Part shown: one piece after another, positions 12,216 to 28,935 of the stretch
How positions within the stretch are numbered: the stretch's first letter is position 1
Layout of the letters: each line of letters opens with the position of its first letter
Position numbers and translations under genes: made by a program
From: Solirubrobacteraceae bacterium
Lineage (GTDB): Bacteria; Actinomycetota; Thermoleophilia; Solirubrobacterales; Solirubrobacteraceae
DNA: 34,240 nt
Reading direction: 5' to 3'
Assembly: GCA_033855575.1 (NCBI GenBank)
Contig: JAWVFY010000309.1
Coordinates: 1 to 34,240 of the forward strand
Notes under the pieces: generated by a model
What the model was told of the DNA's origin: nothing
Seen by the model: only the letters and a program-made list of their open reading frames with translations
Database searches by the model: none

Positions 12216-12425
12216 ATGGCACGTACTCGGACCAACATCGAGCTCGACGACGACCGCGTCGCGGCGATCATGGAACGCTATGGGCTGTCGACGAAGACCG
12301 CCGCGGTCGACCTCGCGCTGCGCCACCTCGCCGGCCAGCCGATGTCGCGTGGACAGGCCCTGGCCATGCGCGGCGCCCACGCGATCGCCGACGTGCCCGC
12401 TGACGAGCCGCCCCGCGCGGCGTGA
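12216..12425 (+). CDS. vapB: Type II antitoxin, VapB family (ribbon-helix-helix type)
   Basis: A 69-aa protein starting MARTRTNIELDDDRVAAIMERYGLSTKTAAVDLALRHL, typical of VapB-type antitoxins. Its stop overlaps the GTG start of the PIN gene (GTGA). Confidence 0.8.
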   Translation: MARTRTNIELDDDRVAAIMERYGLSTKTAAVDLALRHLAGQPMSRGQALAMRGAHAIADVPADEPPRAA

Positions 12426-12832
12426 TCCTCGCCGACACCTCGGCGTGGGTCGAGTACGACCGCGCGACGGGAAGCCCTGCCGACCAGCGGCTCGCCCACC
12501 TGCTCGCCAGACCCCGAGATCTCGCCGTCACCGAACCCGTCGTCATGGAGGTCAGCGCCGGCGCCCGCGACGACGGCCGTGAGCGCGACCTGCTCGACCT
12601 GCTCGCCCGCGCTGTCCTGATCCCGATCGATCCCGCCGCCGACTTCCACGCCGCTGCGCGGATATACCGGCGCTGCCGCGCCTCCGGGGTGACGCCGCGG
12701 GGCATGATCGACTGCATGATCGTCGCCGTCGCCGCCCGCGCCCCAGCGACCGTCCTCGCACACGACGCCGACCTCATCCGCGTCGCCCGCGTCATCGACG
12801 TCCCCGTCGACCATGGCTCGCTGCGCCTCTGA
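12422..12832 (+). CDS. vapC: Type II toxin, PIN-domain ribonuclease VapC
   Basis: A 136-aa protein. ILADTSAWVEY carries the first acidic residue of the PIN domain, followed by VVMEV, IDCMIVAVAA and LAHDADLIRV. It is coupled to vapB by a 4-nt overlap. Confidence 0.85.
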   Translation: MILADTSAWVEYDRATGSPADQRLAHLLARPRDLAVTEPVVMEVSAGARDDGRERDLLDLLARAVLIPIDPAADFHAAARIYRRCRASGVTPRGMIDCMIVAVAARAPATVLAHDADLIRVARVIDVPVDHGSLRL

Positions 12833-15292: not shown

Positions 15293-17017
15293 TCAGGGTC
15301 TCTCCATGTCCGCCGCGTCCAGGTAGGCGCGCCACCCCCCGTGGGACGTCACGTCGATGGCGCCGTGTGTCGCGTAGCCCTCGCACACGAAGCCCGCGGC
15401 GTCTTCGCCGTCCTCGAGCGTGACGCGACCGATCCCCAGCGGGGCGGGTACGCCCTCGAGGAGCTCTCCGACCGCTGCCGGTGCAAGCTCCCAGACCTCG
15501 GCCTCCACGGCAGCTCCGCCGTGGATGGTTCGCACGAGCCCGGGCCGCGGTACGCCGGCGCCGGGGAGGGCGAACAGCCGGTAGACGGGCGCCGTTCGCG
15601 CACGCCGCACCAGCCGCGCGCCGCGCGAGGTCAGCTCGCCGTTGAGCGGCAGACCGCTCATATGCGCTCCGACGACAACCAGGCGCGTGGCTCCAGAGGA
15701 CGCGGGCCGAGGCTCGCCGCGCCACTCGGCGGCGAGGCTCATCAGCCGGTGGTCGTGGAAGGCCGGAGCGATCAGGCTGACCCCACCCGGGAGGCCGTCG
15801 GGGCGGCGGGGGCCGGGAACCGCGATCGCCGCGAGGTCGAGGAGGTTGACGAAGTTCGTGAAGCGGCCGAGGCGGGCGTTGACGCCCACCGGATCTGCCG
15901 CGACCTCGTCCAGGCGGGGGTGCCCGGGCGTGGTGGGAAGCAGGAGCGCGTCGGCCTGCTCCCAGATCGGGCAGGCGGCGCGGTGCAGCTCAGCGAGGCG
16001 GTGCTGGCCGGCGAACACATCGACGGCGCGCAGGCCCGCACCTGCCCGGACGATGGCCGCGACGGTGGGATCCAGCCCGTCAGGCTCGGCGGCCACAATG
16101 TCACCGAGATCGGCCGTCCGCTCGGAGACCCACACGTCGTAGAGCAGGTCGGCGGCCTCCAGGAGCGCTCCGATGTCCACGCGCACCAGCTCCCAGGTCG
16201 CGGCCGCTTCCCGGCATGCCTGCTCCCAGGCCGCGGCGGCGTCGGCCTCCTGGAAGATGAGCTGTCCATCGAGCGGAACGGCGACGCGGCCATGCCGCGG
16301 CGAGGTGGGAACCCGCGGCGCGCGGCTCCACGCATCGGCCGGGTCGAAGGCCGCGGCAACCGCGAGAACGGCCGCGGCATCTGCCACCGACCGGGCCAGG
16401 ACCGAGACGCAGTCCAGCCCGCGACAGGCGGGCAGGACCCCGCGATTCGAGACCAGTCCTCGTGTCGGCTTGATCCCCACGAGCTCGTTGAACGCGGCAG
16501 GGACCCGCCCCGAGCCAGCGGTGTCGGTCCCGAGCGCGAACATGACGTGCCCGAGCGCCACCGCCACGCCGGAGCCCGAGCTCGAGCCGCCGGGGACACG
16601 CTCGCCGTCGAACACGCAGGCCGGAGTCCCGTAGGGCGATCGCGTGCCGACCAGGCCGGTGGCGAACTGGTCCATGTTGGTCTTTCCGACGAGCAGAGCC
16701 CCGGCGCCCAGGAGACGCTCCACGACGGCCGCGTCACGGTCGGCCTCGCGGGCGAACCCCGGGCACGCCGCGGTCGTCGGGAGGCCGCCGACGTCGATGT
16801 TGTCCTTGACGGCGAAGGGGATCCCGTAGAGCGGCAGGCCTGGGTCTGCCGCGTCCAGGGAGCGGGCCGCGGCGCGGAGCGCGTGGGGGTCAACCAGGGT
16901 GATCCAGGCGGGGCCCGGGTCCTCGCCGAGGCGGTCGAGCACCTCGCCGGCAACCTCGCTGGGGCGACTGTGGCCGGCCCGGTAGTCGGCCAGCAGGTCG
17001 GCGATCGATCCGATCAC
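15293..17017 (-). CDS. Allophanate hydrolase (amidase-signature domain plus AtzF-type C-terminal domain)
   Basis: A 574-aa protein starting VIGSIADLLADYRAG. It has the amidase-signature blocks GIPFAVKDNIDVGGLPTTAACP and GGSSSGSGVAVALG, and a C-terminal domain RLVVVGAHMSGLPLNGEL..YRLFALPG. The GTG at 17015-17017 overlaps the TGA of the upstream gene (GTGA). The ORF-track N-terminal extension to 17575 is Arg-rich nonsense. Confidence 0.9.
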   Translation of the reverse strand: MIGSIADLLADYRAGHSRPSEVAGEVLDRLGEDPGPAWITLVDPHALRAAARSLDAADPGLPLYGIPFAVKDNIDVGGLPTTAACPGFAREADRDAAVVERLLGAGALLVGKTNMDQFATGLVGTRSPYGTPACVFDGERVPGGSSSGSGVAVALGHVMFALGTDTAGSGRVPAAFNELVGIKPTRGLVSNRGVLPACRGLDCVSVLARSVADAAAVLAVAAAFDPADAWSRAPRVPTSPRHGRVAVPLDGQLIFQEADAAAAWEQACREAAATWELVRVDIGALLEAADLLYDVWVSERTADLGDIVAAEPDGLDPTVAAIVRAGAGLRAVDVFAGQHRLAELHRAACPIWEQADALLLPTTPGHPRLDEVAADPVGVNARLGRFTNFVNLLDLAAIAVPGPRRPDGLPGGVSLIAPAFHDHRLMSLAAEWRGEPRPASSGATRLVVVGAHMSGLPLNGELTSRGARLVRRARTAPVYRLFALPGAGVPRPGLVRTIHGGAAVEAEVWELAPAAVGELLEGVPAPLGIGRVTLEDGEDAAGFVCEGYATHGAIDVTSHGGWRAYLDAADMERP

Positions 17018-18891
17018 CGCGAGCCGGCCGCCGCCCACGCGGCCCGCTCCTGCGCGAACGCGGCCTCGCGCTGGGAGCGGAACTCGGCGATCTCCGGCTC
17101 GTGGGCGGCCAGGAACCGCTCGTGCTCGAGCAGCGAGAAGCTGGCCGGCTCGATCACGGGTTCCCAGGTGCCTGCGGCGCTGCGCGCGCGCAGCTCCTCG
17201 AGCTCGGCTTCCTCGACGAGCTCGAACCGCAGCTGATCGAAGTGGCGCAACAACCACGGCGGCTCGCTCCGATCGAGCCAGACGGGGACGGTGCGGCCGA
17301 CCAGCTGATAGCCGCCGGGTCCCTCCATGCCGTAGACGCAGAGGAACGCTCCGCCGATCCCCACCGCGTTGGCGGGCGTCCAGGTCCGCGCCGGGTTGTA
17401 CTTCGTGGTCACCAGGCGATGACGGGGGTCCAGGGGTACGGCCACGGGAGCGCCGAGATAGACGTCGCCGAGCCCGAGCACGAGGTAGGACGCGGCAAGG
17501 ACGATCTGCTGGACCTCCTCTTCGGAGTCCAGGCCGTTGATGCGGCGGATGAAGTCGATGTTGTCCGGACACCACGGCGCGTCAGAGCGGACGGAGGTCG
17601 CGTAGCGCTCCACGGCCAGCATCGCCTGAGAGTGGCGCCACGCCAATGGCAGCGTGATGACACGACTGCTCACCTCCAGGGTCTCGGGCAAGGGAAGCGT
17701 CGCCTCGGTGTCGGTCACGAGATCGAGGAGTCGACGCGTCGGCAGGAGGCCGGGGTCGTGCTGGATGTGCAGCGAGCGCACGCCCGGCGTCAGATCGAAC
17801 AACCCCGGCACCCTCAACGTCCGCAGCGCCTCCTGCAACGCGTGGGCGCGGACACGCGAACGAAGCTCGAGCCCGGACTCCCCGAACTCCACGAGCAACG
17901 CCGCCTCCCCCGCCCGCCGATAGGTGACCGGCCCTCCCGGGGAGTCCCCCCGAGCATCGAGGAGCGGGGACAGCCCGGGACCCGCGATCGCCCGGCGATG
18001 GTCGTCGACCGCCACGAGCCGGACCTCGTCGCCGGCGCGCACCTGCCCGAGCTGCCAACGATCTTCAGCCACCACCTGACCGATCGCGACGAACCCCCCG
18101 AGGCTCGGACCGTCGGGACCGACGACAACGGCCATGTCCCCCGCCAGCATCACCGTGCCGACGCCGTAGGCGCTGTCGAGGATGTTCGACGGGTGCAGGC
18201 CCGCGTCACCGCCATCGGAGCGTGCCCAATCGGGTACCGGACCGGTCAGGCGCACTCCGGCACGGTCGGACTGGTGGTGCACGGTCCAGCCGGCGGTGAA
18301 GAGCTCCTCGAGCCCTTCGGGCGTCAGGAAGTCCGGGGCGCCGTGCGGGCCGGGCACGACGCGCAGGTTCCAGGCATTGCCCATCGGCACCGGGGGCTCA
18401 GGCTCCCCGGAACCCGCGGACCCGGGCTCCCCGAACGCCAGCGTGTCGCCCTTGCGCAACGCCCCACCGCCGAGACCGGCCGGCGCGAACACCGCCTGGC
18501 TGCCCATCGCCAACGCGGTGTCCACGCCTCCCGCGACGGCCAGGTAGGCGCGCATGCCAACGCTCCGGATCACGCCGAGCTTGACCAGTGCGCCCGCCGG
18601 CACGTCGATCGCCGACCACTGCGGTGCCGGCGTGCCATCGACCTCGACGATCAGCGGCGCCCCGGTCACCGCGATCCGAGCGCCGTCGGGAAACCGCAGC
18701 CGCGGTCCTGTCACCGTGACCTCCAGCCCGGCCGATTCGTCCGCGTTGCCGACGAGTCGGTTGGCCGTCCGCAGCGAGCGATCATCCATCGGTCCCGACG
18801 GCGGAACGCCGACCTCCCAGAGTCCCAGACGTCCCGGCAAGGCCTGCACCGTGGTCAGCGTCCCGGCCGATACGACCTCGGCGGCGCTCAC
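17014..18891 (-). CDS. Stand-alone carboxyltransferase (CT) domain of urea/guanidine carboxylase: KipA/PxpC-like A-B subdomains fused to KipI/PxpB-like C-D subdomains, with no biotin carboxylase and no BCCP
   Basis: A 625-aa protein. The N-terminal half, GTLTTVQALPGRLGLWEVGVPPSGPMDDRSLRTANRLVGN, is KipA/AHS2-like. The C-terminal half, with PWCPDNIDFIRRINGL and GIGGAFLCVYGMEGPGGYQLVGRT, is KipI/AHS1-like as in urea carboxylase. The GTG start at 18889-18891 overlaps the stop of the upstream DUF1989 gene, so there is no room for a BC domain. The protein ends ..AQERAAWAAAGSR without a biotinyl-lysine (AMKM-type) motif. Confidence 0.85.
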   Translation of the reverse strand: MSAAEVVSAGTLTTVQALPGRLGLWEVGVPPSGPMDDRSLRTANRLVGNADESAGLEVTVTGPRLRFPDGARIAVTGAPLIVEVDGTPAPQWSAIDVPAGALVKLGVIRSVGMRAYLAVAGGVDTALAMGSQAVFAPAGLGGGALRKGDTLAFGEPGSAGSGEPEPPVPMGNAWNLRVVPGPHGAPDFLTPEGLEELFTAGWTVHHQSDRAGVRLTGPVPDWARSDGGDAGLHPSNILDSAYGVGTVMLAGDMAVVVGPDGPSLGGFVAIGQVVAEDRWQLGQVRAGDEVRLVAVDDHRRAIAGPGLSPLLDARGDSPGGPVTYRRAGEAALLVEFGESGLELRSRVRAHALQEALRTLRVPGLFDLTPGVRSLHIQHDPGLLPTRRLLDLVTDTEATLPLPETLEVSSRVITLPLAWRHSQAMLAVERYATSVRSDAPWCPDNIDFIRRINGLDSEEEVQQIVLAASYLVLGLGDVYLGAPVAVPLDPRHRLVTTKYNPARTWTPANAVGIGGAFLCVYGMEGPGGYQLVGRTVPVWLDRSEPPWLLRHFDQLRFELVEEAELEELRARSAAGTWEPVIEPASFSLLEHERFLAAHEPEIAEFRSQREAAFAQERAAWAAAGSR

Positions 18892-19532
18892 GCGGCGGGC
18901 GTGACCACCAGCCGGATCGGCGTGGGGTCATAGCCGTTGCACGGGTTGTTCAACTGCGGGCAGTTGGAGATCAGGACCAGCGTGTCTCGCTGGGCCAGCA
19001 GGTCGAGATGCTTGCCGGGTGCCGAGATGCCGTCGGCGAACTCGAGCCCGCCGTCGGGGGTGAGCGGCACGTTCATGAAGAAGTTCACGTTGTGGCCGAG
19101 GTCGCGCTTGCTCAGCCCTCGGCCCCACACCAGCGCCTGGGCCAGGAACGTGTTGCGACACGCGTGCATGTGACGCGTGTGCTCGCCGTAGCGGACGACG
19201 TTGCTCTCCTGGGAGCACGCGCCACCCAGCGTGTCGTGACGCCCGCAGGTGTCCTCGACGATCGTCACCAGCGGCAATCCATCGACCGCCAGCAGCGACG
19301 AGCCGATCGTCAGGTAGGCGGAGCCCTGCTCTCGAAGCGTATCCACGGCGCTGTAGCGGTTGGCGTAGTCATGCGCGTCGAAGAACAGGGTGTCGACGGC
19401 CTGATTGCCATGCAGGTCGACGATCCGCAGCGTCTCGCCGGCATGCAGTTCGCCGATCCATCCGTCTCCGGCGGAGACCTCGAGCTCAAGCTTCGCCCGG
19501 GTGCCGGCGCCCTGCCTCTCGACCGTGTTCAC
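18888..19532 (-). CDS. DUF1989 / urea-carboxylase-associated family protein (carboxyguanidine deiminase subunit-like)
   Basis: A 214-aa protein starting VNTVERQGAG. It contains LRIVDLHGNQAVDTLFFDAHD and ISNCPQLNNPCNGYDPTPIRL. The GTG at 19530-19532 overlaps the upstream stop (GTGA), and GGAGG lies 9 nt upstream. Confidence 0.85.
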   Translation of the reverse strand: MNTVERQGAGTRAKLELEVSAGDGWIGELHAGETLRIVDLHGNQAVDTLFFDAHDYANRYSAVDTLREQGSAYLTIGSSLLAVDGLPLVTIVEDTCGRHDTLGGACSQESNVVRYGEHTRHMHACRNTFLAQALVWGRGLSKRDLGHNVNFFMNVPLTPDGGLEFADGISAPGKHLDLLAQRDTLVLISNCPQLNNPCNGYDPTPIRLVVTPAA

Positions 19533-20236
19533 GTGAGCGCAACCTCCAACTCGGTGGCCGCGAATCCGCGCTCGTTCTCCGGACAGGCCAGGCGCACCGG
19601 ATCGTCGGGGGCCGCCGGGCGGACGTCCGCGATGGCCAGCCTGACGGGCCGAGGCCGCCACGCGGGCTCGGGGTCGAGAGGATGTGGCACGGCGCAGGCC
19701 ACGACCAGCGTGTCCATCTCGAAGCGCAGCCGGACGTGCGCACCGGCGGGCGAGCTGTCCGAGACGAACGAGAGCGCACCGTCATCGCCGACCGCGATCC
19801 TGGTGAAGAAGTTGACGTTGGCGACGAGGTCGCGTCGGCCCAGCTCGTGCTTGGCCAGCTCGACGAGAAGCCCCTCACGGGCGCTGCGGCGCCACGCGTT
19901 GTGGCCCTCCTGGTAGCTCATCGTGCCCCAGCGTCCTGCGACGTGACCGGGCGTCGCGTGGCCGGTGATGGTGTCGTGCCAGCCGCACGTGTCCTCGACG
20001 ACCGAGACCAGCACACGCCCCATGTCGGAGTGGAGCGCCACGCCCTGGGTGATCCGCGAGCAGTGCTGCGCCTTGAGCGTGTCGGGCATGCAGTAGCGCT
20101 CGACCGGTTGATCCGCGCGATAGAAGAGCGCAGAGAGGTTGGCGCCCCCTTCGAGGTCGGTCAGCGTCATCGCCGTGCCACGCCGGCAGACCTGTGACCA
20201 GCTGGCGCCCCCCGGGAGGATCGCATCGACGATCAC
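19529..20236 (-). CDS. DUF1989 / urea-carboxylase-associated family protein (second carboxyguanidine deiminase subunit-like paralog)
   Basis: A 235-aa protein starting VIVDAILPGGASWSQV. It contains LTDLEGGANLSALFYRAD and VVEDTCGWHDT, which parallels IVEDTCGRHDT in the paralog. The GTG at 20234-20236 overlaps the stop of the MBL gene (GTGA), and GGAGG lies upstream. Confidence 0.85.
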   Translation of the reverse strand: MIVDAILPGGASWSQVCRRGTAMTLTDLEGGANLSALFYRADQPVERYCMPDTLKAQHCSRITQGVALHSDMGRVLVSVVEDTCGWHDTITGHATPGHVAGRWGTMSYQEGHNAWRRSAREGLLVELAKHELGRRDLVANVNFFTRIAVGDDGALSFVSDSSPAGAHVRLRFEMDTLVVACAVPHPLDPEPAWRPRPVRLAIADVRPAAPDDPVRLACPENERGFAATELEVALT

Positions 20237-21123
20237 GCCGCGACCTCCGATGCCGACCAGTCCACGGGCACGAACACGCTGAAGCCGTCGAACACCGCCT
20301 CGCGCACCTCGCCGCCCACGCAGTCGACCCCCGAACGCAGCGCGACCTCTCCTCCCAGCACGCGCGCGAACGCGTCGGCCTGCAGGGCCAGAAAGGCCGG
20401 TGGGACCTCCGTGCGCATGAAGTGCGAGCAGAACACACGATCCCATCGCTCCGACCGCGCCGCCAGCCCGGACAGCGACGCCTGGAGGGCGCCCAGGTCG
20501 GAGTCGGGCAACTGGGCATAGACCGGTCCGGTGTTGACGGTGTCGCCTCCGAACAGCATGCCCTCGCCCATGAGGTCCAGGCACACGCAGTCCGGCGAGT
20601 GGCCCGGGGTGTGGATGACGTCGAGCCGGCGGCCGCCGAGATCGATCGAGTCACCGTCCTCGATCACGCCCGTCGCCACGAACCCGTCGATGTGCCAGGC
20701 CGAACGGACCTCGGGCGTCAGCCGGCGCACGGTGTGCTGGTCTGCGATCAGGTGGAAATAGCGGTCGTCGAGCTGCTGGTAGTGCCCGAAGCAGTCCTCT
20801 TGGCCCGTCGCGTACTGGAGGTAGGCGTCCAGCAGCTCCGTGGGGACAGCCCGGGCCAGCCCATCCACCCCGAGCGGGTGGATCAGGATCTCCTCGAACT
20901 CGTCGTCGCCACCGATGTGATCGAAGTGGTGGTGCGTGTGGACGACGGTGACCGGCCGGTCCGTCAGAGCCTCGACGACGGGGCGGATCGCAGCAAAGCC
21001 GCAGCCCGTGTCGATCAGCGCAGCTCTGTTCTCACCGGCCACGAGCCAGGAGCAGACGTGCCCAGGCTCGGTGAGCTGCCACACACCCTCTGCGAGCTCC
21101 GTCACGGAGAACCACTCACGCAT
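20233..21123 (-). CDS. Metallo-beta-lactamase-fold hydrolase
   Basis: A 296-aa protein. HTHHHFDHIGG is the HxHxDH zinc motif, and TPGHSPD follows later. The ATG lies 3 nt downstream of the stop of the permease gene. Confidence 0.85.
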   Translation of the reverse strand: MREWFSVTELAEGVWQLTEPGHVCSWLVAGENRAALIDTGCGFAAIRPVVEALTDRPVTVVHTHHHFDHIGGDDEFEEILIHPLGVDGLARAVPTELLDAYLQYATGQEDCFGHYQQLDDRYFHLIADQHTVRRLTPEVRSAWHIDGFVATGVIEDGDSIDLGGRRLDVIHTPGHSPDCVCLDLMGEGMLFGGDTVNTGPVYAQLPDSDLGALQASLSGLAARSERWDRVFCSHFMRTEVPPAFLALQADAFARVLGGEVALRSGVDCVGGEVREAVFDGFSVFVPVDWSASEVAA

Positions 21124-21126
21124 CGA

Positions 21127-22128
21127 TCAGACCGTCCTGATGCGCGGGTCCGCCCACGCCTGCGCGACGTCGACGAGGAAGTTGACGACCACGTAGATCG
21201 TCCCGAGAAGCAGCGTCGCGCCGGTGATCGCCGGGAAGTCGGAGTAGGCGATCGACTGGTCGATGTAGAGGCCCAGTCCCGGCCACGCGAAGATCGACTC
21301 CACCACGACGATGCCTCCAAGCAGAAGCCCGAACTGCAGGCCCGCCATCGTGAGCGCAGGGCCGGCGGCGTTGCGCAGAGCATGGCGCAGCAGCACGGTG
21401 CGCTCCCGAAGGCCCTTCGACCGCGCTGTGCGAACGTAGTCCTCGCGCATCACCGTCGTCAGCGACGTGCTCAGCGTCCGCGCGATGGCCAGCGCGGGCA
21501 GCAGGGCCAGCGTCAGACCCGGCATCAGCAGGTGGCCCAACGCGCTGAAGAACACGTTCGGCTCGACGTGCAGCAGCGAGTCGATCAGCAGGAAGCGCGT
21601 CGGGCCGGTCGGCAGCACGAGGGTGTCGGTCACGCGCCCCGAGGCGGGCAGCAGATGCAGGCCCGAGTAGAGGACGAGGATCAGGATCAGGCCGAACAGG
21701 AAGCTCGGCACCGACGCCCCGCCGATGAGCGCGCGCCGGATCCAGCGGCCCGCCCGCCCGCCGCCCGCCAGCAGGAGCCCCAGCCCGAGACCGATCACGC
21801 CCGCCAGGAAGGCCGCGAACAGCGCCAGCTCCATGGTCGCCGGCGCGAAGGTGCCGAGATCGTCGACCACCGGGTTACGTGTGCGAAGGGAGCTCTGGAG
21901 GTCGCCGTGCAGCAGGCGGCCGGCGAACCGCACGAAGCGCTCGGGAAGCGGCCTGTCGTAGCCGAGCTCGTGCCGCTTGGCCGCGACGACCTTCGGTGAG
22001 GCGCTCGCGCCGACGACGGCTCGGGCCGGGTCGGCCGGCACCACGACCTCCAGCACGAAGGTGATGACCGCCAGCCCCGCCAACACGGCGACGAGGCCCG
22101 CGAACCGGCGTCCGAGGAGACCGGCCAT
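21127..22128 (-). CDS. ABC transporter permease, DppB/OppB-like
   Basis: A 333-aa protein starting MAGLLGRRFAGLVAVLAGLAVITFVL. It has multiple TM segments and the EAA-loop region REDYVRTARSKGL. The ATG at 22126-22128 overlaps the SBP stop by 1 nt (TGATG). Confidence 0.85.
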   Translation of the reverse strand: MAGLLGRRFAGLVAVLAGLAVITFVLEVVVPADPARAVVGASASPKVVAAKRHELGYDRPLPERFVRFAGRLLHGDLQSSLRTRNPVVDDLGTFAPATMELALFAAFLAGVIGLGLGLLLAGGGRAGRWIRRALIGGASVPSFLFGLILILVLYSGLHLLPASGRVTDTLVLPTGPTRFLLIDSLLHVEPNVFFSALGHLLMPGLTLALLPALAIARTLSTSLTTVMREDYVRTARSKGLRERTVLLRHALRNAAGPALTMAGLQFGLLLGGIVVVESIFAWPGLGLYIDQSIAYSDFPAITGATLLLGTIYVVVNFLVDVAQAWADPRIRTV

Positions 22129-23702
22129 CAGCCGGTCCCTCGCAGCGCCGCCAGGTCGACCGTCCAGGGATAGGCAGGCACCGCCTGCACGTTGGTCAGC
22201 TTGTTGCTCAGGACGAAGACGTTCTTGACGTCGCCGAGGAAGAACATCTCGTTGCTGTCGAGCACGCGCTGGCCGACCTGCGAGTACAGCGCGTCGGCCT
22301 TGGCCTTCGGCGCGCTCACTGCCTGGTCGAGCAGCTTGTCGATCGTCGGGTCCTTGAAGCCCAGGAAGTCCAGCCCTCCCGAGGAGTAGAAGAGGATCCG
22401 CGCCCACGTGTCGGGGTCGGCGGCGTCGGGGGTGTTGGTGACGAGCAGGAGGTCCGGGGCGTGCGCCAGATCCTTGACGTACCCGTAGACCTGCGGCAGC
22501 TGGACCTCCTTGAGCGTGACGTCGTAGCCCGCGGCCGAGAGCTGGGCCTGCAGCAGCTCGCTGGCTCTGCGCTGGACACCTGACTCGTCGGCGGTGTAGG
22601 CCAGCGTGATCGACCTCGTCTTCGCCTTGGCGCTGATCGCCTTCGCCGCCGCGGTGTTGGGCTTGTAGGGCAGGCCCGGCTGACTCGGCAGCAGGCCGGG
22701 CGGATAGGCGCCGGTGGACGCGGTGGCGGTGCCCGCGTACGCCTGCGAGACGAGCTGGCCGACGTCGAAGGTCGATCGCAGACCCGCGCGGATGGCCGGA
22801 TCCGAGAACGGAGCCCGGTTGGTGTTGACGTAGAGCAGCAGCCGCAGGTAGGAGCTCTCGCGCTTGACGGTCAGGTTGGACGGCAGCGAGCTGAGCTCCG
22901 AGGCGGGGAACGAGTGCAGGATCGCGTCAAGGTCGCCGTTCTGCAGCTCGAGGCGCTGCGTCCCGATGTCCGGCGTGATCTTGAAGATGATCTTCTGGAA
23001 GTAGGGAGCCGTTCCCCAGTAGCCGGGTGCGCGTGTCAGCACGTACTGGCGTCCACGGTCGAACGCCGTGATCTCATAGGGGCCGGTGCCGTCCTCGTGG
23101 GTGCGCAGCCAGGTCTGCGCGTGGTCTGATCCCGCGTGCTGCGTGATCGCGCCGGGCCCGATGATCTTGGGGCCCCAGCTCGAGGCCATGTAGGCCAGGA
23201 ACGGGTTGACCGGATGCTTGAGCTTGATGACGAGCTCGAGCGGCTTCGGCGTCAGCATGCTCTTGACCGGCTCAAGCATGTAGGAGGGTGCCTGGGCGAC
23301 CGCGAGACGTCGCTCGAAGCTTGCCTTGACCGCTGTCGACGTCAGCTTGCTGCCGTCATGGAAGCGAACACCGGGTCGCAGGTGGAACGTGTAGGTCAGC
23401 CGGTCAGGCGAGACCGTCCAGGACGCGGCCAGGCTGCCGACGATCCTCGACGAGCCCGGCGCGTACTTCAGCAGGCCGTCGTAGCTGTTGAGGATCACCG
23501 AGTTGCCCTCGATGTCGTAGAAGACGTCGGGATCGGGCACCGACATGTCGGCGAGATACGGGATGCGCAGCACGGCGTTGCTCGCGCCGGACGCGCCGCC
23601 CGCCGCTGTTCCGCCGACGCTGCTGGACGTGCTCTTTGCGCCGCACCCTGCTGCGAGCAGGGCCGCCAGGGTGAGCACGGCCAGGATCGAACGGTGCCTC
23701 AT
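22128..23702 (-). CDS. ABC transporter substrate-binding lipoprotein, family 5 (peptide/nickel/opine type)
   Basis: A 524-aa protein starting MRHRSILAVLTLAALLAAGCGA, a lipoprotein-type signal. Family-5 SBP blocks are SLAASWTVSPDRLTYTFHLRPGVRFHDGSKLT and GTGPYEI. The ATG at 23700-23702 overlaps the upstream stop (ATGA), and AAGGAA lies upstream. Confidence 0.9.
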   Translation of the reverse strand: MRHRSILAVLTLAALLAAGCGAKSTSSSVGGTAAGGASGASNAVLRIPYLADMSVPDPDVFYDIEGNSVILNSYDGLLKYAPGSSRIVGSLAASWTVSPDRLTYTFHLRPGVRFHDGSKLTSTAVKASFERRLAVAQAPSYMLEPVKSMLTPKPLELVIKLKHPVNPFLAYMASSWGPKIIGPGAITQHAGSDHAQTWLRTHEDGTGPYEITAFDRGRQYVLTRAPGYWGTAPYFQKIIFKITPDIGTQRLELQNGDLDAILHSFPASELSSLPSNLTVKRESSYLRLLLYVNTNRAPFSDPAIRAGLRSTFDVGQLVSQAYAGTATASTGAYPPGLLPSQPGLPYKPNTAAAKAISAKAKTRSITLAYTADESGVQRRASELLQAQLSAAGYDVTLKEVQLPQVYGYVKDLAHAPDLLLVTNTPDAADPDTWARILFYSSGGLDFLGFKDPTIDKLLDQAVSAPKAKADALYSQVGQRVLDSNEMFFLGDVKNVFVLSNKLTNVQAVPAYPWTVDLAALRGTG

Positions 23703-24601
23703 CGGGTGTTCCTTTGGTCGAGGTGACGGTTGATGGCGTCGCCCATGACGTTCGCGGTGAACGCAAGCAGCGCGACGGCCACGGCAGGTGCGAGCGGGAC
23801 CCACGGATGGCCGAAGAGGTAGTCCAGGCCCCGCGCGCTCATCGCCCCGAGCTCAGGTGCCGGCGCCGGCGCGCCCAGGCCGATGAACGACAGGGCGGCC
23901 AGCGCAAGGATCAGGTTGCCGACGTCCAGGGACATCGTGACGACCACCGGCGCGACGGCGCCCGGCAGGAGGTGGCGCAGGACCAGCCGTCTGCGGCTGA
24001 CGCCCGCCAGCCGCGCCGCCTCGGCGTGCGGCCGGACGGCGAGCGCGCGGACCTCGGCGCGAACGATCCGCGCGTACCAGGGCCACCACACGATGCTCAG
24101 CGCGAGCAATGTGTGAAACAGGCTGGGGCCCATCGAGGCCACGATGGCGATCGCCAAGACCGGCGCCGGCAGCGAGATGAACAGGTCGGTCAAGCGCATC
24201 AGGACCGTGTCGACGATGCCGCCCAGCGCGCCGGCCAGCGCTCCCACGAGCGCACCGAACGCCGCGCCGAGCGAGATGACGCCCAGCGCGGCGAGCCACG
24301 AGGTCCGCAGGCCGATCAGCACCCTCGACAGCACGTCGCGGCCGATCTCGTCGGTCCCCAGGAGGTTGTGCACCGAGAGCCCGTGCAACGGACCGGCAGC
24401 CGTGATCTGCAGCGCACTGTCAGGCGCCAGCAGCGGCGCGATCAAGATCACCAGCGTCAGCACCGCGACGGGTAGAAGGGCGCGGCGCAGGCCCGCGGGG
24501 CTCACGCTGCCGGACGGCGTGCCGCGACGCCGCACGAACGCGCCGACGGCTCCACGCGCCACGGCCGGTGCCGCGTCAGACGTCGTGGGCGCCATCGCCA
24601 T
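23699..24601 (-). CDS. ABC transporter permease, DppC/OppC-like
   Basis: A 300-aa protein starting MAMAPTTSD. It contains LLGTDEIGRDVLSRVLIG, typical of OppC/DppC, and has several TM segments. The ATG at 24599-24601 overlaps the ATPase stop by 1 nt. Confidence 0.85.
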   Translation of the reverse strand: MAMAPTTSDAAPAVARGAVGAFVRRRGTPSGSVSPAGLRRALLPVAVLTLVILIAPLLAPDSALQITAAGPLHGLSVHNLLGTDEIGRDVLSRVLIGLRTSWLAALGVISLGAAFGALVGALAGALGGIVDTVLMRLTDLFISLPAPVLAIAIVASMGPSLFHTLLALSIVWWPWYARIVRAEVRALAVRPHAEAARLAGVSRRRLVLRHLLPGAVAPVVVTMSLDVGNLILALAALSFIGLGAPAPAPELGAMSARGLDYLFGHPWVPLAPAVAVALLAFTANVMGDAINRHLDQRNTR

Positions 24602-26409
24602 CAGGCCGCCTCCACCCCGGGGACCGCGGCAAGGAGCTCGCACGTGTACGGATGGGTGGGCTGCGCGAAGATCTGCTCGACGGTGCCGCGCTCGACCACA
24701 CGGCCGCGCCGCATGACGATCACGTCATCGGCGACCGCCCGCGCGGCCGCCAGGTCATGGGTGACGAAGAGCAGGGCGATGCCGAGCGTCGCGCGCAGGT
24801 GGCAGAGCAGGTTGAGGACCTGGGCCGCCAGCGACACGTCCAGGGCCGACACCGGCTCGTCGCACGCCAGAAGAGCCGGGGGCACCGCGATCGCCCGGGC
24901 GATCGCGGCCCGCTGGCGCTGGCCGCCCGAGAGCCGCCGCGGCATCATCGCGGCCTGCTCCGCCGACAGGCCGACGGCCTCGAAGGCCGCGGCGACGCGT
25001 GCAGGTCGCTCCGTGGCCGGGACGCCGACCGCGGCGAGCCTCTCGGCAACCTGCTCTCCCACCGACATCCATGGTGTCAACGATGCGCCGGCGTCTTGGA
25101 AGATCATCTGCGGCGAGGCGCCGGGACCGAGCCGCATCGAGCCCGCTGTCGGATCCAGCAACCCCACGATCATCCGCAGCAGCGTGCTCTTGCCCGAGCC
25201 GGACTCGCCGACGACTGCCACCGACCCGCCGGGCGGGACGACGAGGTCGATCGCGTCGACGGCGCGCAGCGGCTCTGACGCTGATGCGAACGGATGGCGC
25301 CGGGGACGGGCGAACTCCCGTACGAGTCCCGTGACGGTCAGGGCGGGCTCGAGAGCCGTGCCCGGGATGGATGCGGGAGCCTCCTGAGCCGGCGGGCGAA
25401 GGAGCATGAGGTCGGGCCGCCGCATGTGCGGTCCGCCCTCGGGCCAGCGTGAGAGGACTCCGGGGTGGTGGCACTCGTCGCGCCGGGCGGCCGCGAGGTG
25501 GACGGGCACCGCCAGTGCGCAGCTGGCGTCGCTGGCTGGGCAGCGCGGCGCGAACGCGCAGCCCGCCATCGGCCGGCGCGGGTCGGGAGGCCGACCGGGC
25601 AACGTGGGCAGGTCACCGCCGGCGACCGTGCCGTGCAGGCTCGGGCGGCTGGCCAGCAGCCCGACGGTGTATGGGTGGCGCGCGCCGGCCAGGACCTCGG
25701 GGGTGGTCCCGGTCTCGACGATCCGGCCTGCGTAGGCGACCGCGATCCGGTCACAGATGCGCGCGGCGACACCCAGGTCGTGGGTGACCAGCAGCAGCGA
25801 CACGCCGCGATCGCGCGCGGCGGCCGCGAGCAGGTCGAGCACCTTGGCCTGGACCGTGACGTCGAGCGCGGTCGTCGGCTCGTCGGCGATGATCAGCCGC
25901 GGAGCCCGGGCCAGTGCCATGGCGATCATCACGCGCTGGCGCAGGCCGCCCGACAGCTCGTGCGGATAGGCCCGCGCCTTGACGTGCGGCTCCGGGATGC
26001 CGGTCGATCCAAGCAGCTCGCAGACCGCCTGGGTCGACAGTCCGTCGCCTGCCTCGTCCACCTGTCGCCCCACGCGCATGGTCGGGTTCAGCGAAGCCAT
26101 CGGATCCTGGAAGACCGCGCCGACGTAGGAGCCCCGTCGGGCGCGGCGAGCGTCCTCACCGGCGGACACCATGTCCTCGCCATCGAGACGGACCTCGCCC
26201 CGGATGGTCGGAGCGGGATCGCGCGGGAGGAGGCCGAGCGCGGTCAGTCCGAGCACGCTCTTGCCAGATCCCGACTCGCCGACCAGGCCGAGGACCTCCC
26301 CCTCGGCGATCGCCAACGTCGCTCCACGCAGGGCGTGGACGTCGCCGTCACGAGCAGCGAACGTGACGTGCAGGTCGCGCACGTCGAGAACGGGGACCGG
26401 CCGAGTCAA
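24601..26409 (-). CDS. Fused double-NBD ABC ATPase (DppD-DppF type)
   Basis: A 602-aa protein. It has two Walker A motifs (both GESGSGKS), two signature motifs (LSGGLRQR and LSGGQRQR) and two HPYT oligopeptide-type C-terminal motifs. The TTG start at 26407-26409 overlaps the upstream TGA (TTGA). Confidence 0.9.
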   Translation of the reverse strand: MTRPVPVLDVRDLHVTFAARDGDVHALRGATLAIAEGEVLGLVGESGSGKSVLGLTALGLLPRDPAPTIRGEVRLDGEDMVSAGEDARRARRGSYVGAVFQDPMASLNPTMRVGRQVDEAGDGLSTQAVCELLGSTGIPEPHVKARAYPHELSGGLRQRVMIAMALARAPRLIIADEPTTALDVTVQAKVLDLLAAAARDRGVSLLLVTHDLGVAARICDRIAVAYAGRIVETGTTPEVLAGARHPYTVGLLASRPSLHGTVAGGDLPTLPGRPPDPRRPMAGCAFAPRCPASDASCALAVPVHLAAARRDECHHPGVLSRWPEGGPHMRRPDLMLLRPPAQEAPASIPGTALEPALTVTGLVREFARPRRHPFASASEPLRAVDAIDLVVPPGGSVAVVGESGSGKSTLLRMIVGLLDPTAGSMRLGPGASPQMIFQDAGASLTPWMSVGEQVAERLAAVGVPATERPARVAAAFEAVGLSAEQAAMMPRRLSGGQRQRAAIARAIAVPPALLACDEPVSALDVSLAAQVLNLLCHLRATLGIALLFVTHDLAAARAVADDVIVMRRGRVVERGTVEQIFAQPTHPYTCELLAAVPGVEAA

Positions 26410-27011
26410 ACGCCGACCCTGGCGGGCTCTGCGGCGCCGAGGGCACTGAGCAGCTCGGCGGTCGTGACGAGGCAGTCGCGCTGCAGGTAGCGCATCGCCC
26501 GCAGAGACGCCTCGTGCGCCTCCGGCGAGGAGCCGCCGGTGGCGTCAGTGACGACCTTGCAGTGGTAGTCGTGTTGATGGGCGTCGGCGAACGTGTAGTG
26601 GACGCAGACGTCGGTCAGACCGCCGAGAAGCACGACGGTCTCGATGCCCAGCGACTTCAGGACGAGCTCGAGCTCGGTGGCGAAGAACGCCGAATAGCGG
26701 CGCTTGCGGATGTGGTACTCGTCGGCCCGCGGCTCGAGTCCGCTCGCGAGCTCGGTCAGCTCGTCGCCTTCGAGGCAGTGCACGGTCTCGCTGCCGTCGA
26801 GCTCGCGGCCGAAGTCGAGCAGCGTGCGCTTGTGGACCTCCTGAATGAAGATCGGCGGGACCGCCGCCTCACGGGCCGCCGCCAGGATCTGGCGTGCTCG
26901 ATCGACCCGCTCGGGCCCACCGGGCATCAGCGGGATGCCGCACTCGACATCGAGCTCGGCGGACCGCTGGACATCCACCAGGATGAGAGCCGTGTTGCCG
27001 ATCAGTTCCAA
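26406..27011 (-). CDS. Isochorismatase-like cysteine hydrolase (amidohydrolase)
   Basis: A 201-aa protein. Candidates for the D-K-C triad are ALILVDVQ (Asp), HIRKRRYSAF (Lys) and GGLTDVCVHYT (Cys). The TTG start at 27009-27011 lies 6 nt after AAGGAG (27018-27023). It is the first gene after the riboswitch. Confidence 0.85.
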   Translation of the reverse strand: MELIGNTALILVDVQRSAELDVECGIPLMPGGPERVDRARQILAAAREAAVPPIFIQEVHKRTLLDFGRELDGSETVHCLEGDELTELASGLEPRADEYHIRKRRYSAFFATELELVLKSLGIETVVLLGGLTDVCVHYTFADAHQHDYHCKVVTDATGGSSPEAHEASLRAMRYLQRDCLVTTAELLSALGAAEPARVGV

Positions 27012-27023
27012 GCCAAGCTCCTT

Positions 27024-27063
27024 AGAAATCAGAAAAGCCCGGCAGACGTGATGTCTCCCGGGC
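27024..27063 (-). terminator. Intrinsic terminator acting as the riboswitch expression platform
   Basis: The RNA reads GCCCGG-GAGAC-AUCAC-GUCUG-CCGGGC followed by UUUUCUGAUUUCU. The 5' arm (GCCCGG, + strand 27058-27063) is part of the conserved AAAAGCCCGGGAGA 3' end of the aptamer, so the aptamer and the terminator are mutually exclusive. Confidence 0.7.
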
Positions 27064-27165
27064 TTTTATCCCTCCGTGTCAGCGCGGCTATGTCGATGCC
27101 GGCCTGCCCTCTCGGACCAGACCCGCCGGTTGCCCGGCGGCGGAACCCTAGGGCGAACGTCACGA
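27054..27165 (-). promoter_or_regulatory. Guanidine-I (ykkC/yxkD) riboswitch aptamer
   Basis: The minus-strand RNA is CGUUCGCC-CUAGGGUUCCG-CCGCCGG-GCAA-CCGGCGG-GUCU-GGUCCGAGAG-GGCAGGCCGGCAUCGACAUAGCCGCGCUG-ACACGGAGGGAUAAAAGCCCGGGAGA. All three hallmark conserved blocks of the ykkC class are present in the correct order: CUAGGGUUCCG at 27141-27151, GGUCCGAGAG at 27109-27118, and ACACGGAGGGAUAAAAGCCCGGGAGA at 27054-27079. There is also a GNRA-capped P1a hairpin. Confidence 0.88.
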
Positions 27166-28928: not shown

Positions 28929-28935
28929 GCGGCGC

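Follow-up and report, generated by a model that had tools for sequence, protein, structure and literature searches.

Background

Full-length guanidine and urea carboxylases (EC 6.3.4.6; NCBIfam TIGR02712; K. lactis urea carboxylase [UC], structures 3VA7 and 5I8I) carry a biotin carboxylase (BC) domain, a carboxyltransferase (CT) domain of subdomains A-D, and BCCP in one chain. Position 1330 (K. lactis numbering) separates guanidine carboxylases, which have Asp, from urea carboxylases, which have Asn. D1584 is a signature residue of guanidine carboxylases (PMC11410670), and K1605 has been proposed as the general base (PMC5770610). UC CT-domain homologues that stand alone have been described in M. 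smegmatis, where MSMEG_0435-0436 docks onto the BCCP domains of AccA3 and takes up their biotin, which is then "positioned to participate in a carboxylation reaction"; UC activity is absent, however, and the protein acts as an inhibitor that sequesters the biotin of AccA3 and reduces the activity of propionyl-CoA carboxylase (PMC13012033). In P. mendocina, the guanidine carboxylase pathway is fed by the guanylurea hydrolase GuuH, a member of the isochorismatase-like hydrolase superfamily (PMC9800807).

The operon described here shares its carboxylase slot and its control by a Guanidine-I riboswitch with the P. syringae guanidine carboxylase pathway (CgdAB and allophanate hydrolase). Its CT has the same complete A-D domain as the known carboxylases, is about 50% identical to the proteobacterial enzymes and retains D1584, K1605 and Y1628; unlike those enzymes, it has neither BC nor BCCP, and position 1330 is Met rather than Asp or Asn. 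The operon also differs from known guanidine carboxylase operons in adding an isochorismatase-like hydrolase (ILH) and in having an importer of the Opp type rather than the NitT/TauT type. The loss of BC and BCCP from the carboxylase of this operon extends to a whole group of soil bacteria.

A guanidine-responsive operon in Solirubrobacteraceae

The window, meaning the whole stretch of DNA analysed, comprises 34,240 nt from a Solirubrobacteraceae bacterium (GCA_033855575.1, contig JAWVFY010000309.1, positions 1-34,240, forward strand). Behind a Guanidine-I riboswitch (27162-27053) lie ten translationally coupled genes on the minus strand, in the order ILH, Opp-type ABC importer, MBL-fold hydrolase, CgdA/B-like deiminase, CT-only protein and allophanate hydrolase:

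27053..27162, minus strand: Guanidine-I (ykkC) riboswitch aptamer at the operon head (RF00442)
26406..27011, minus strand: isochorismatase-like cysteine hydrolase (ILH), first gene of the operon (Pfam Isochorismatase, 6.7e-41)
24601..26409, minus strand: fused double ABC ATPase of the Opp/Dpp/Nik type (Pfam ABC_tran twice plus oligo_HPY; NCBIfam)
23699..24601, minus strand: ABC permease 1 (Pfam BPD_transp_1)
22128..23702, minus strand: family-5 (peptide/nickel/opine type) substrate-binding protein (NikA-like and Opp-like NCBIfam matches, all below cut-off)
21127..22128, minus strand: ABC permease 2 (Pfam BPD_transp_1_N and BPD_transp_1)
20233..21123, minus strand: MBL-fold hydrolase, between the transporter and deiminase genes (Pfam Lactamase_B, 3.3e-20)
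19529..20236, minus strand: DUF1989/UAAP1, CgdA-like carboxyguanidine deiminase subunit (TIGR03425, 289.8 bits, above the cut-off of 205.95)
18888..19532, minus strand: DUF1989/UAAP2, CgdB-like carboxyguanidine deiminase subunit (TIGR03424, 303.6 bits, above the cut-off of 284.7)
17014..18891, minus strand: stand-alone UC/GC-type CT, subdomains A-D, without BC and without BCCP (Pfam, NCBIfam, PDB alignment, AlphaFold model)
15293..17017, minus strand: allophanate hydrolase with amidase-signature N domain and AH_C, last gene of the operon (TIGR02713, 680 bits, above the cut-off of 511; Pfam Amidase and AH_C)

The riboswitch matches RF00442 over the full length of the model with 78 bits (gathering score 63) and is followed by a GC-rich hairpin and TTTTCT (about 27069-27030) that overlap the 3' strand of the aptamer. 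It occupies the same place at all five related loci tested (L001, L005, L006, L007 and L013), and an alignment of the riboswitches shows a conserved core and a visible hairpin. The first-pass annotation of this DNA did not contain the riboswitch, nor the conserved ILH gene at the head of the operon, nor the change from Asp/Asn to Met at position 1330.

The genes are tightly packed: the double ABC ATPase start overlaps the ILH stop, an ATGA overlap joins the substrate-binding protein gene to permease 1, and UAAP1 has a GTGA overlap with the MBL stop. The L001 orthologue of the substrate-binding protein is SBP_bac_5. The MBL-fold gene is found in only some related operons, its slot being filled in L025 and L062 and not in L001. 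Of the operon's genes, UAAP2 is the most conserved, with 74-86% identity among the Solirubrobacterales loci that have it. The UAAP1/UAAP2 and allophanate hydrolase genes that flank the CT gene are bona fide orthologues and are translationally coupled.

The CT gene encodes a complete CT domain without BC or BCCP

The CT ORF (17014-18891, minus strand) starts with GTG and encodes 625 aa. Its stop-to-stop frame extends just 12 codons further upstream, to 18927, which makes an N-terminal BC domain impossible. The GTG start (18891-18889) shares bases with the stop codon of the upstream DUF1989 gene (TGA, 18890-18888), and the TGA stop (17016-17014) overlaps the GTG (17017-17015) of the allophanate hydrolase gene; thus, four-base GTGA overlaps at both ends leave no coding space for BC or BCCP. 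Pfam identifies CT_A_B at residues 27-293 (1.6e-79), CT_C_D at residues 323-548 (2.5e-38) and no other domain. The protein scores 775 bits against TIGR02712 and aligns up to profile position 1110 of 1201, falling below the cut-off of 1304 bits because both ends of the profile are unmatched. In the PDB alignment (E = 3.9e-134), query residues 3-294 correspond to K. lactis UC 477-783 and residues 319-604 to 835-1123, so that the K. lactis CT domain (477-1123) is covered end to end; the best structural match to the AlphaFold model is 5i8i/3va7, with a TM-score of 0.77 normalised to the query. Thus, the ORF is a complete urea/guanidine-carboxylase CT domain, and the 625-aa CT-only protein of the first-pass annotation, with its GTG overlapping the DUF1989 stop, was borne out by the ORF, domain and overlap checks.

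The absence of BC and BCCP from the operon and the window, also claimed there, held in every search. A tblastn search with the full-length 1179-aa Rhizobium UC matched the window only with UC residues 450-1079, Pfam scans found no ATP-grasp or biotinyl domain in the other main ORFs of the window, and no xMK[MLAV] motif is present in window ORFs of at least 60 aa in any frame. Further afield, no BC or BCCP gene was found within 10 kb of the CT gene at 13 genome loci, or after 37 metagenome riboswitch copies of the window's sequence type.

The CT-only form is conserved, with an altered position 1330

The best 120 database matches to the CT are all 601-734 aa long and have only the two CT Pfam domains, and the operon recurs at 13 independent Solirubrobacterales genome loci and on about 33 metagenome contigs. 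Residues D476, K497 and Y520, which correspond to K. lactis D1584, K1605 and Y1628, are invariant in all 120 of these nearest homologues, and 209 of the 248 CT columns that are invariant across seven full-length enzymes are identical in the query. The CT-only architecture is conserved and under purifying selection.

M248 of the CT, an invariant Met, occupies position 1330. Across 61 representative clusters, Met at this position, or Ile (L012), occurs only in proteins without BC and BCCP; Asp1330 is nevertheless retained in several such proteins (P0126, P0121, P0124, P0131 and P0132), so Met1330 is not required for life without these domains. The invariant Met implies a probably remodelled substrate pocket, and the true acceptor of the CT could be different from free guanidine or urea. 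The CT also differs from guanidine/urea carboxylases in having Leu in place of H1320 and F1331, but these variants (L238 and L249) are no argument against biotin use because enzymes equipped with BC and BCCP carry them too.

Guanidine operons of further lineages also lack BC and BCCP, some retaining a decayed BC remnant (BC is decaying in place in P0121, P0124, P0131 and P0132), and these domains seem to have been lost several times. Among the relatives are CT-only, CT-BCCP (for example P0161, without BC) and decayed-BC plus CT forms, so the earlier description of these carboxylases as single polypeptides of about 1200 aa was too absolute. Elsewhere, full-length enzymes fill the slot of the CT gene: in L010 and L014-L018 they follow two DUF1989 genes, and in L066 the neighbours are a DUF1989 gene on one side and allophanate hydrolase on the other. 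In two operons, a CT without BC and BCCP stands beside a canonical guanidine-type importer with no ILH, namely an APC permease in L012 and a NitT/TauT-type ABC transporter in L068.

How might guanidine be carboxylated?

The reading that we prefer, although its chances fall a little short of even, is that the stand-alone CT is supplied with carboxybiotin by a hypothetical BC-BCCP encoded elsewhere. The CT would be the working carboxyltransferase component of an operon that is induced by guanidine and serves its assimilation, in which guanidine would be converted to carboxyguanidine, allophanate and finally NH3 and CO2. With the cis BC and BCCP domains of the carboxylase lost in the Solirubrobacterales lineage of the window, carboxybiotin would reach the CT in trans, and ATP-dependent guanidine carboxylation would be the work of a split enzyme. 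Its likeliest partner would be a housekeeping AccA-type alpha subunit, already common to several Actinomycetota beta subunits; the proposed logic is that of AccA3 with AccD4, AccD5 and AccD6, where one BC-BCCP serves several interchangeable CT subunits. Guanidine probably still needs carboxylating, since the CTs of L012 and L068 adjoin canonical guanidine importers without an ILH.

A trans partner, which the first-pass annotation had listed among its alternatives, is made plausible by CT-BCCP proteins without BC and by MSMEG_0435-0436. Like the CT described here, MSMEG_0435-0436 is a stand-alone actinobacterial UC CT-domain homologue without BC or BCCP of its own, and it demonstrates that proteins of this kind are able to bind the BCCP of a foreign AccA and accept its biotin into the pocket (PMC13012033). 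The resemblance has limits: MSMEG_0435-0436 consists of two polypeptides, against one fused A-B-C-D chain here, has only about 30 to 114 bits of similarity to the CT, lacks the UC catalytic residues and lies outside a guanidine operon. That it is an inhibitor devoid of UC activity counts against it as a precedent for supply in trans.

Other points also weigh against trans supply. No partner gene lies near the CT gene at the loci searched, and loss of a tethered BCCP should cost catalytic efficiency. The UC-type CT fold is unrelated to that of AccD beta subunits, so the docking of alpha subunits on AccD-type subunits is not reusable here, and we know of no interaction shown between a catalytic UC-type CT and an alpha subunit. 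Met or Ile at 1330, confined to proteins without BC and BCCP, hints at altered chemistry or another substrate. Finally, repeated loss of BC and BCCP, with BC decaying in place, is just as expected of a CT that has dispensed with biotin.

The main rival reading, which takes up the biotin-independent alternative of the first-pass annotation, is that the CT works without biotin and ATP, forming carboxyguanidine directly from guanidine and CO2 or bicarbonate, or binding or stabilising carboxyguanidine; we consider this rather unlikely. The retained base and pocket (D476, K497 and Y520) would be used, the hydrophobic residue at 1330 would reflect a remodelled pocket, and flux would be drawn forward by the CgdAB and allophanate hydrolase steps, which are essentially irreversible. 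In keeping with such chemistry, several lineages without BC and BCCP have an intact CT in the same slot, and a partner gene is near none of about 50 loci. The family already includes a biotin-independent member, PxpBC of 5-oxoprolinase. However, carboxylating guanidinium directly on nitrogen should be thermodynamically uphill at neutral pH, which is presumably why canonical enzymes spend ATP; the residues kept are those assigned to biotin-dependent carboxyl transfer, Asp1330 persists in the five proteins named above, and to our knowledge a UC-type CT working without carboxybiotin has no biochemical precedent.

It is less probable still that ILH makes the carboxylated intermediate, leaving the operon of the window with no need of a carboxylase. 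Guanylurea or another carbamoyl- or acyl-guanidine would enter through the Opp-type transporter, and ILH would hydrolyse it to carboxyguanidine and NH3, the former passing straight to CgdAB and allophanate hydrolase; the CT would play an accessory part, for example by salvaging or retaining the guanidine/carboxyguanidine that escapes through spontaneous decarboxylation, and the riboswitch would sense leaked guanidine. ILH has an intact Asp-Lys-Cys triad (VDVQ, KRRYSAF and TDVCV), and its gene is conserved at the head of the operon, not only in the window but also in the distant L025 lineage, at the 11 genome loci with sufficient upstream sequence and at about 33 metagenome loci. The family-5 binding protein fits a ligand bigger than guanidine, and GuuH provides a precedent from the same superfamily. 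ILH is, however, only distantly related to its Cys-Asp-Lys relatives GuuH, BiuH and TrtA (triuret hydrolase), with about 60 bits to any characterised enzyme, BiuH (cut-off 370), RutB and N-carbamoylsarcosine amidase included. On a Streptomyces plasmid, a 58%-identical ILH-plus-ABC module stands without Cgd, CT or allophanate hydrolase genes. This reading also gives the CT's strictly conserved catalytic residues no defined role, and, given the CTs of L012 and L068, ILH cannot be the general reason why BC and BCCP are dispensable.

We regard it as very improbable that the CT has no catalytic role and regulates by binding BCCP, in the manner of KipI/KipA or MSMEG_0435-0436; when guanidine is present, it would then sequester biotinylated BCCP and so modulate acyl-CoA carboxylases. 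Its superfamily is that of MSMEG_0435-0436, for which such sequestration is described. Yet, unlike MSMEG_0435-0436, every one of the 120 CT homologues keeps D1584, K1605 and Y1628, the CT is far nearer to UC than to KipA/KipI, and its gene is translationally coupled to CgdB on one side and to allophanate hydrolase on the other; the catalytically degenerate CT-only lineages (P0141 and P0168) look different.

On the sequence evidence, a pseudogene or decaying truncation, an assembly or frameshift artefact that conceals BC and BCCP, or a PxpBC-type 5-oxoprolinase can be dismissed, the one point in favour of any of these being the TIGR02712 score below cut-off. PxpBC (KipI/KipA) of the biotin-independent PxpABC belongs to the same superfamily, CT_C_D being PxpB-like and CT_A_B PxpC-like; the CT differs in its fused UC domain order and guanidine/allophanate context, its scores of 119 bits (PxpC) and 45 bits (PxpB) fall far short of the equivalog cut-offs, and domain scans found no LamB/YcsF (PxpA) gene in the window. 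Against an artefact stand the GTGA overlaps on both sides, and no part of the window contains a fragment of either BC or BCCP. The decaying gene of the first-pass annotation is refuted, as far as sequence data show, by invariant catalytic residues and an identical architecture in independent assemblies.

A stand-alone carboxyltransferase without BC and BCCP

The gene at 17014-18891 (-) starts with GTG and encodes a 625-aa protein whose only Pfam matches are the two halves of a urea/guanidine-carboxylase carboxyltransferase (CT): CT_A_B at residues 27-293 (1.6e-79) and CT_C_D at residues 323-548 (2.5e-38). From residue 3 onward, this CT-only protein aligns to residues 477-1123 of K. lactis urea carboxylase (UC), residue 477 being the first of the CT domain (E = 3.9e-134). 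An AlphaFold model gave 5i8i and 3va7 as top Foldseek matches, with a TM-score of 0.77 normalised to the query; because the model is of moderate confidence (pLDDT 75.6), with low-confidence stretches that include the segments bearing D476, K497 and Y520, it was used for fold assignment only. Pfam, structure alignment and Foldseek all identify a CT domain with subdomains A-B and C-D. The N-terminal biotin carboxylase domain of UC (BC, an ATP-grasp domain) and its C-terminal biotin-carrying domain (BCCP) are both missing, the protein ending at the equivalent of residue 1088 of a 1179-aa full-length Rhizobium UC (locus L002). When the window was searched with that enzyme by tblastn, only residues 450-1079 matched, and residues 1-449, the BC part, gave no match. 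Against TIGR02712 the protein scored 775.5 bits, below the cut-off of 1303.85, because neither end of the profile has a counterpart in it; the alignment reached position 1110 of 1201.

Upstream of the start, the in-frame stop-to-stop extension is 12 codons at most. At the 5' end, the GTG start codon shares bases with the TGA of the DUF1989 gene before it, and the stop overlaps the GTG of the allophanate hydrolase (AH) gene, with both junctions reading GTGA. Thus, there is no space for the missing BC and BCCP. Pfam found no ATP-grasp or biotinyl domain in the other main ORFs of the window, and an xMKM-type biotinyl-lysine motif was absent from every window ORF of at least 60 aa. The third-position GC of the gene (0.87-0.88) is like that of its neighbours. 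The first-pass annotation had described a carboxylase reduced to its CT domain, a GTG overlapping the stop of the preceding DUF1989 gene, and a window devoid of BC- or BCCP-like ORFs; Pfam, tblastn, the motif search and the GTGA junction bear out this description.

A guanidine-responsive operon

Ten translationally coupled minus-strand genes make up the operon, with the CT-only gene in ninth place. The DUF1989 pair (CgdA/CgdB, or UAAP1/UAAP2) and AH adjoin it, with overlaps at all junctions.

Riboswitch and genes of the operon (window coordinates)
27162-27053 (-): Guanidine-I (ykkC) riboswitch; RF00442, 78 bits, gathering score 63
27011-26406 (-): isochorismatase-like cysteine hydrolase (ILH), operon gene 1
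26409-24601 (-): fused Opp/Dpp/Nik-type ABC ATPase
24601-23699 (-): permease 1
23702-22128 (-): family-5 binding protein
22128-21127 (-): permease 2
21123-20233 (-): MBL-fold hydrolase
20236-19529 (-): UAAP1/CgdA-like protein, TIGR03425 above cut-off
19532-18888 (-): UAAP2/CgdB-like protein, TIGR03424 above cut-off
18891-17014 (-): CT-only protein, CT_A_B and CT_C_D
17017-15293 (-): allophanate hydrolase, TIGR02713 above cut-off

The riboswitch lies directly upstream of the operon and covers the full-length model with its conserved core intact. Behind it, a GC-rich hairpin followed by a T-run overlaps the 3' strand of the aptamer, as an expression platform. Each of the five related Solirubrobacterales loci tested also has a Guanidine-I riboswitch at the head of its operon. 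When metagenomes were scanned with the lineage-specific core CTGGTCCGAGAGGNCNGGCCGGCA of this riboswitch, 37 loci came back, and nearly all of those with enough downstream sequence lead into the same ILH-plus-ABC genes; the CT-only gene was reached in 2 of the 37, and a BC or BCCP gene was found behind the riboswitch in none. In the known pathway, guanidine carboxylase (GC) is followed by CgdAB and then allophanate hydrolase (PMC11410670, PMC12186494). Thus, by riboswitch and Cgd/AH gene context, the operon is a guanidine-responsive version of this pathway with a carboxylase that lacks BC and BCCP.

Several features of the operon vary or stand apart. The MBL-fold hydrolase between ABC permease and CgdA occurs only in some versions (the window, L025 5836-6597 and L062 9282-10154), and in the related locus L001 FmdA/AmdA and RidA genes lie downstream of AH. 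The ILH, a Cys-Asp-Lys hydrolase, scores about 60 bits at best to BiuH, RutB and N-carbamoylsarcosine amidase, and we found no description in the literature of an ILH under a guanidine riboswitch. On a plasmid of Streptomyces sp. NBC_00564 (L064 8510-17427), a 58%-identical ILH sits beside an ABC transporter of matching type. Behind these come two genes for hypothetical proteins, each about 339 aa long, and one for a RidA protein; Cgd, CT and AH genes are absent. At L055 13085-13850, the riboswitch and a truncated ILH start lead directly into AH; this arrangement, at a contig end, resembles an operon that has been rearranged or has degraded. Two riboswitch copies facing each other at L047 1397-3387, with ILH fragments on both strands, are probably a palindromic assembly artefact.

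Conservation of the CT-only form and of its catalytic residues

In a database of 5.8 billion proteins, each of the best 120 matches has 601-734 aa, carries the two CT domains only and is 60-75% identical to the query; many come from Solirubrobacteraceae MAGs, and their source annotations read 'urea carboxylase' or '5-oxoprolinase/urea amidolyase family protein'. Among species-representative genomes, a scan gave 19 loci: 13 from Solirubrobacterales, in which the CT-only gene has neither BC nor BCCP inside a 10-kb distance, and 6 from proteobacteria, in which two DUF1989 genes precede a full BC-CT-BCCP gene. A tblastn search of 20 genome loci (10 kb on each side) found BC/BCCP genes only as parts of the 6 proteobacterial full-length genes.

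The query is identical at 209 of the 248 CT-domain columns that are invariant in seven full-length enzymes. Mapped via the 5i8i alignment, K. lactis D1584, K1605 and Y1628 correspond to D476 (motif GLGDV), K497 (TKYNP) and Y520 (CVY) of the query, and the UC catalytic residues are thus retained, being invariant in 120 of the 120 best homologues. A role of Y1628 in CT catalysis was reportedly described by Fan et al. in 2012. In the CT reaction, K1605 has been proposed as the general base (PMC5770610), and D1584 counts among the signature residues required of guanidine carboxylases (PMC11410670). The first-pass annotation had proposed both a comparison of catalytic residues with full-length enzymes and a survey of related genomes for the same short architecture, and each returned a positive answer. 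Its suggestion of a decaying gene, by contrast, is contradicted by the 120 CT-only homologues and the invariant D476, K497 and Y520, which together with the codon overlaps also rule out an assembly artefact or frameshift.

A substitution at the specificity position

Asp at position 1330 (K. lactis numbering) marks guanidine carboxylases and Asn marks urea carboxylases (PMC11410670, PMC12186494). K. lactis has the N of INFTGD here, and the seven full-length bacterial enzymes have the D of VDFTGD; the query has neither, its residue being M248, within VMLAGD. Met248 is present in 120 of 120 best homologues, and L238 and L249, which are His and Phe, respectively, in UC/GC, are likewise invariant (120/120). 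Among 61 representative clusters spanning the family at 50% identity, Met1330 was restricted to BC/BCCP-less proteins, namely the query clade, P0129 and P0130. Ile takes this position in another CT-only type, from a Solirubrobacteraceae MAG (L012). Of the three, position 1330 alone is distinctive, since Leu at the sites of L238 and L249 is also seen in enzymes that have BC and BCCP. Judged by this pattern, Met1330 is a conserved divergence at a specificity residue rather than a sign of relaxed constraint, and, together with the conserved ILH first gene, it suggests a natural guanidino or ureido substrate that has gone unrecognised.

The CT-only protein shares its CT fold, catalytic residues, operon position and riboswitch control with guanidine carboxylase, and on these grounds it probably works like the CT half of that enzyme. 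It differs in lacking BC, BCCP and the Asp/Asn1330 signature, and in falling below the curated score cut-off; with three defining features and the cut-off failed, it should not be filed simply as 'urea carboxylase'. Our literature search found no description of a CT-only guanidine or urea carboxylase.

Other BC- and BCCP-less members of the family

Related architectures occur beyond the query clade. P0126 (686 aa, Asp1330) is a CT-only protein from a distant lineage, encoded in the same ILH-ABC-MBL-Cgd-CT-AH operon (L025). P0129 and P0130, with Met1330, are CT-only as well, the former behind two DUF1989 genes (L024). The MAG locus L012 (2984-9444) encodes an APC permease, two DUF1989 proteins, a 641-aa CT-only protein and AH, without ILH and with no riboswitch at gathering score. 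In P0121, P0124, P0131 and P0132 (873-1068 aa), an intact Asp-type CT follows an N-terminal stretch of 225-427 aa that is no longer recognised as BC, and there is no BCCP. This stretch retains a 31-bit Biotin_carb_C trace in P0124, and in sequence it looks like a decayed BC domain; a GV/GI-TN motif closes it in all four proteins. Their operons are in other respects canonical guanidine operons. P0121 is encoded between DUF1989 and AH genes (L022 906-3527), and P0132 (L068 10001-13207) belongs to a canonical operon of NitT/TauT-ABC, two DUF1989, CT and AH genes without ILH. In a rough neighbour-joining tree, the BC/BCCP-less forms fall among full-length Asp1330 enzymes; as the tree carries no support values, several independent losses of BC and BCCP are at most suggested.

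Three proteins depart further. P0161 (721 aa, L023 2847-5012) is a CT-BCCP protein with no BC and no DUF1989 or AH neighbours, and may be a different split carboxylase. P0141 (663 aa) and P0168 (689 aa) are CT-only proteins that have lost the catalytic Asp/Lys/Tyr (A/R/I and N/R/Q, respectively) and are candidates for non-catalytic or different functions. In the protein at L020 10001-12034 and in P0056, P0070, P0080 and P0115 (695-734 aa), the A-B and C-D halves are separated by about 70 inserted residues. Of the intact BC-CT-BCCP proteins seen, P0127 is the closest (52% identity), with a Guanidine-II (mini-ykkC) riboswitch just upstream of its full-length gene (L066 1105-1152).

How the carboxyltransferase may be served

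Comparative evidence shows a conserved, selected and catalytically equipped CT, inside a predicted guanidine-induced carboxyguanidine/allophanate pathway, that has no BC or BCCP in cis. The most economical inference, which we would place just short of an even chance, is that carboxybiotin is supplied in trans. A BC-BCCP encoded elsewhere in the genome would charge biotin and hand carboxybiotin to the stand-alone CT, which would carboxylate guanidine; CgdAB, and then AH, would carry the product onward. BC/BCCP-less CTs beside ordinary guanidine importers without ILH (L012 and L068) imply that guanidine still must be carboxylated there. A 2026 cryo-EM study found that M. smegmatis MSMEG_0435-0436, stand-alone homologues of the UC CT domain, bind BCCP domains of AccA3, the shared alpha subunit, with biotin bound where carboxylation could occur; the UC residues are missing from this pair, which acts as an inhibitor (PMC13012033). 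By analogy, such docking, which has been seen only in MSMEG_0435, a distant homologue, is a direct precedent for use of a foreign BCCP by the CT-only protein, and CT-BCCP proteins without BC show further modularity in the family. Were supply in trans correct, the UC-type CT would be an exchangeable subunit, alpha-subunit sharing would extend to an unrelated CT fold, and BCCP docking by MSMEG_0435-0436 would gain catalytic meaning.

A less probable, though serious, alternative is that the CT forms or handles carboxyguanidine independently of biotin and ATP, with CgdAB and AH drawing the reaction forward. None of the sequence data conflict with it, and both the repeated decay of BC in place and the hydrophobic side chain at 1330 suit a biotin-free CT as well as they suit supply in trans; however, carboxyguanidine formation by this route should be chemically uphill and has no known precedent. 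Slightly more doubtful is the specific version in which the stand-alone CT is a guanidine N-carboxylase (carboxyguanidine synthase/lyase) that has shed BC and BCCP and remodelled pocket position 1330 from Asp/Asn to Met/Ile. A biotin-independent reaction would mean that a member of a biotin-enzyme family has dispensed with biotin, and that no ATP is spent at the carboxylation step of the guanidine pathway. Either resolution, in trans or biotin-independent, would be new.

It is unlikely that the ILH makes carboxyguanidine from imported carbamoyl-guanidine in the window's operon, with the CT as an accessory and GuuH as the model (PMC9800807). The strict association of ILH with the operon speaks for such a role, but the CTs without ILH at L012 (APC permease) and L068 (NitT/TauT ABC) weaken it as a general substitute for BC and BCCP, no characterised enzyme is closer to the ILH than about 60 bits, and the 58%-identical ILH-plus-ABC module exists apart from Cgd, CT and AH genes. 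We give little credence to the CT-only protein being a BCCP-sequestering regulator, against which its retained catalytic residues and operon position speak. KipI/KipA and MSMEG_0435/0436 are separate polypeptides, whereas the CT-only protein is a single fused chain with the UC domain order and UC residues, and it scores about 114 bits against 3mml_A versus 452 bits against 3va7. That the gene is a pseudogene, an artefact or PxpBC 5-oxoprolinase is barely credible: PxpC scored 118.8 bits (cut-off 500) and PxpB 44.8 bits (cut-off 145.55), and no PxpA (LamB/YcsF) domain was found in the scanned ORFs of the window or L001, contrary to the first-pass possibility of PxpBC as closest kin with PxpA nearby.

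Implications for guanidine metabolism

In its published form, the guanidine carboxylase pathway requires a carboxylase that contains biotin and depends on ATP (PMC11410670), a model that does not fit these organisms. In a whole order of Actinomycetota that are abundant in soil, and in several further lineages, the guanidine riboswitch, CgdAB and AH are kept beside a carboxylase devoid of its ATP-using and biotin-carrying domains. The CT-only architecture is real and widespread. Surveys relying on full-length TIGR02712 matches or the Asp1330 signature will overlook the CT-only clade and will therefore underestimate guanidine-using soil taxa.

Other genes in the window

Downstream of AH, positions 13694-15259 (-) encode a 521-aa protein that resembles a membrane protein and has no Pfam or NCBIfam match. 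Upstream of the riboswitch, at 27519-34240 (-), is a run of MlaD-domain (Mce-type) genes, one with an added Mce4_CUP1 match, which appears unrelated to the operon. The plus strand encodes a DUF6351 tannase-like protein at 8047-10218 (+) and a PIN-domain protein at 12404-12832 (+).
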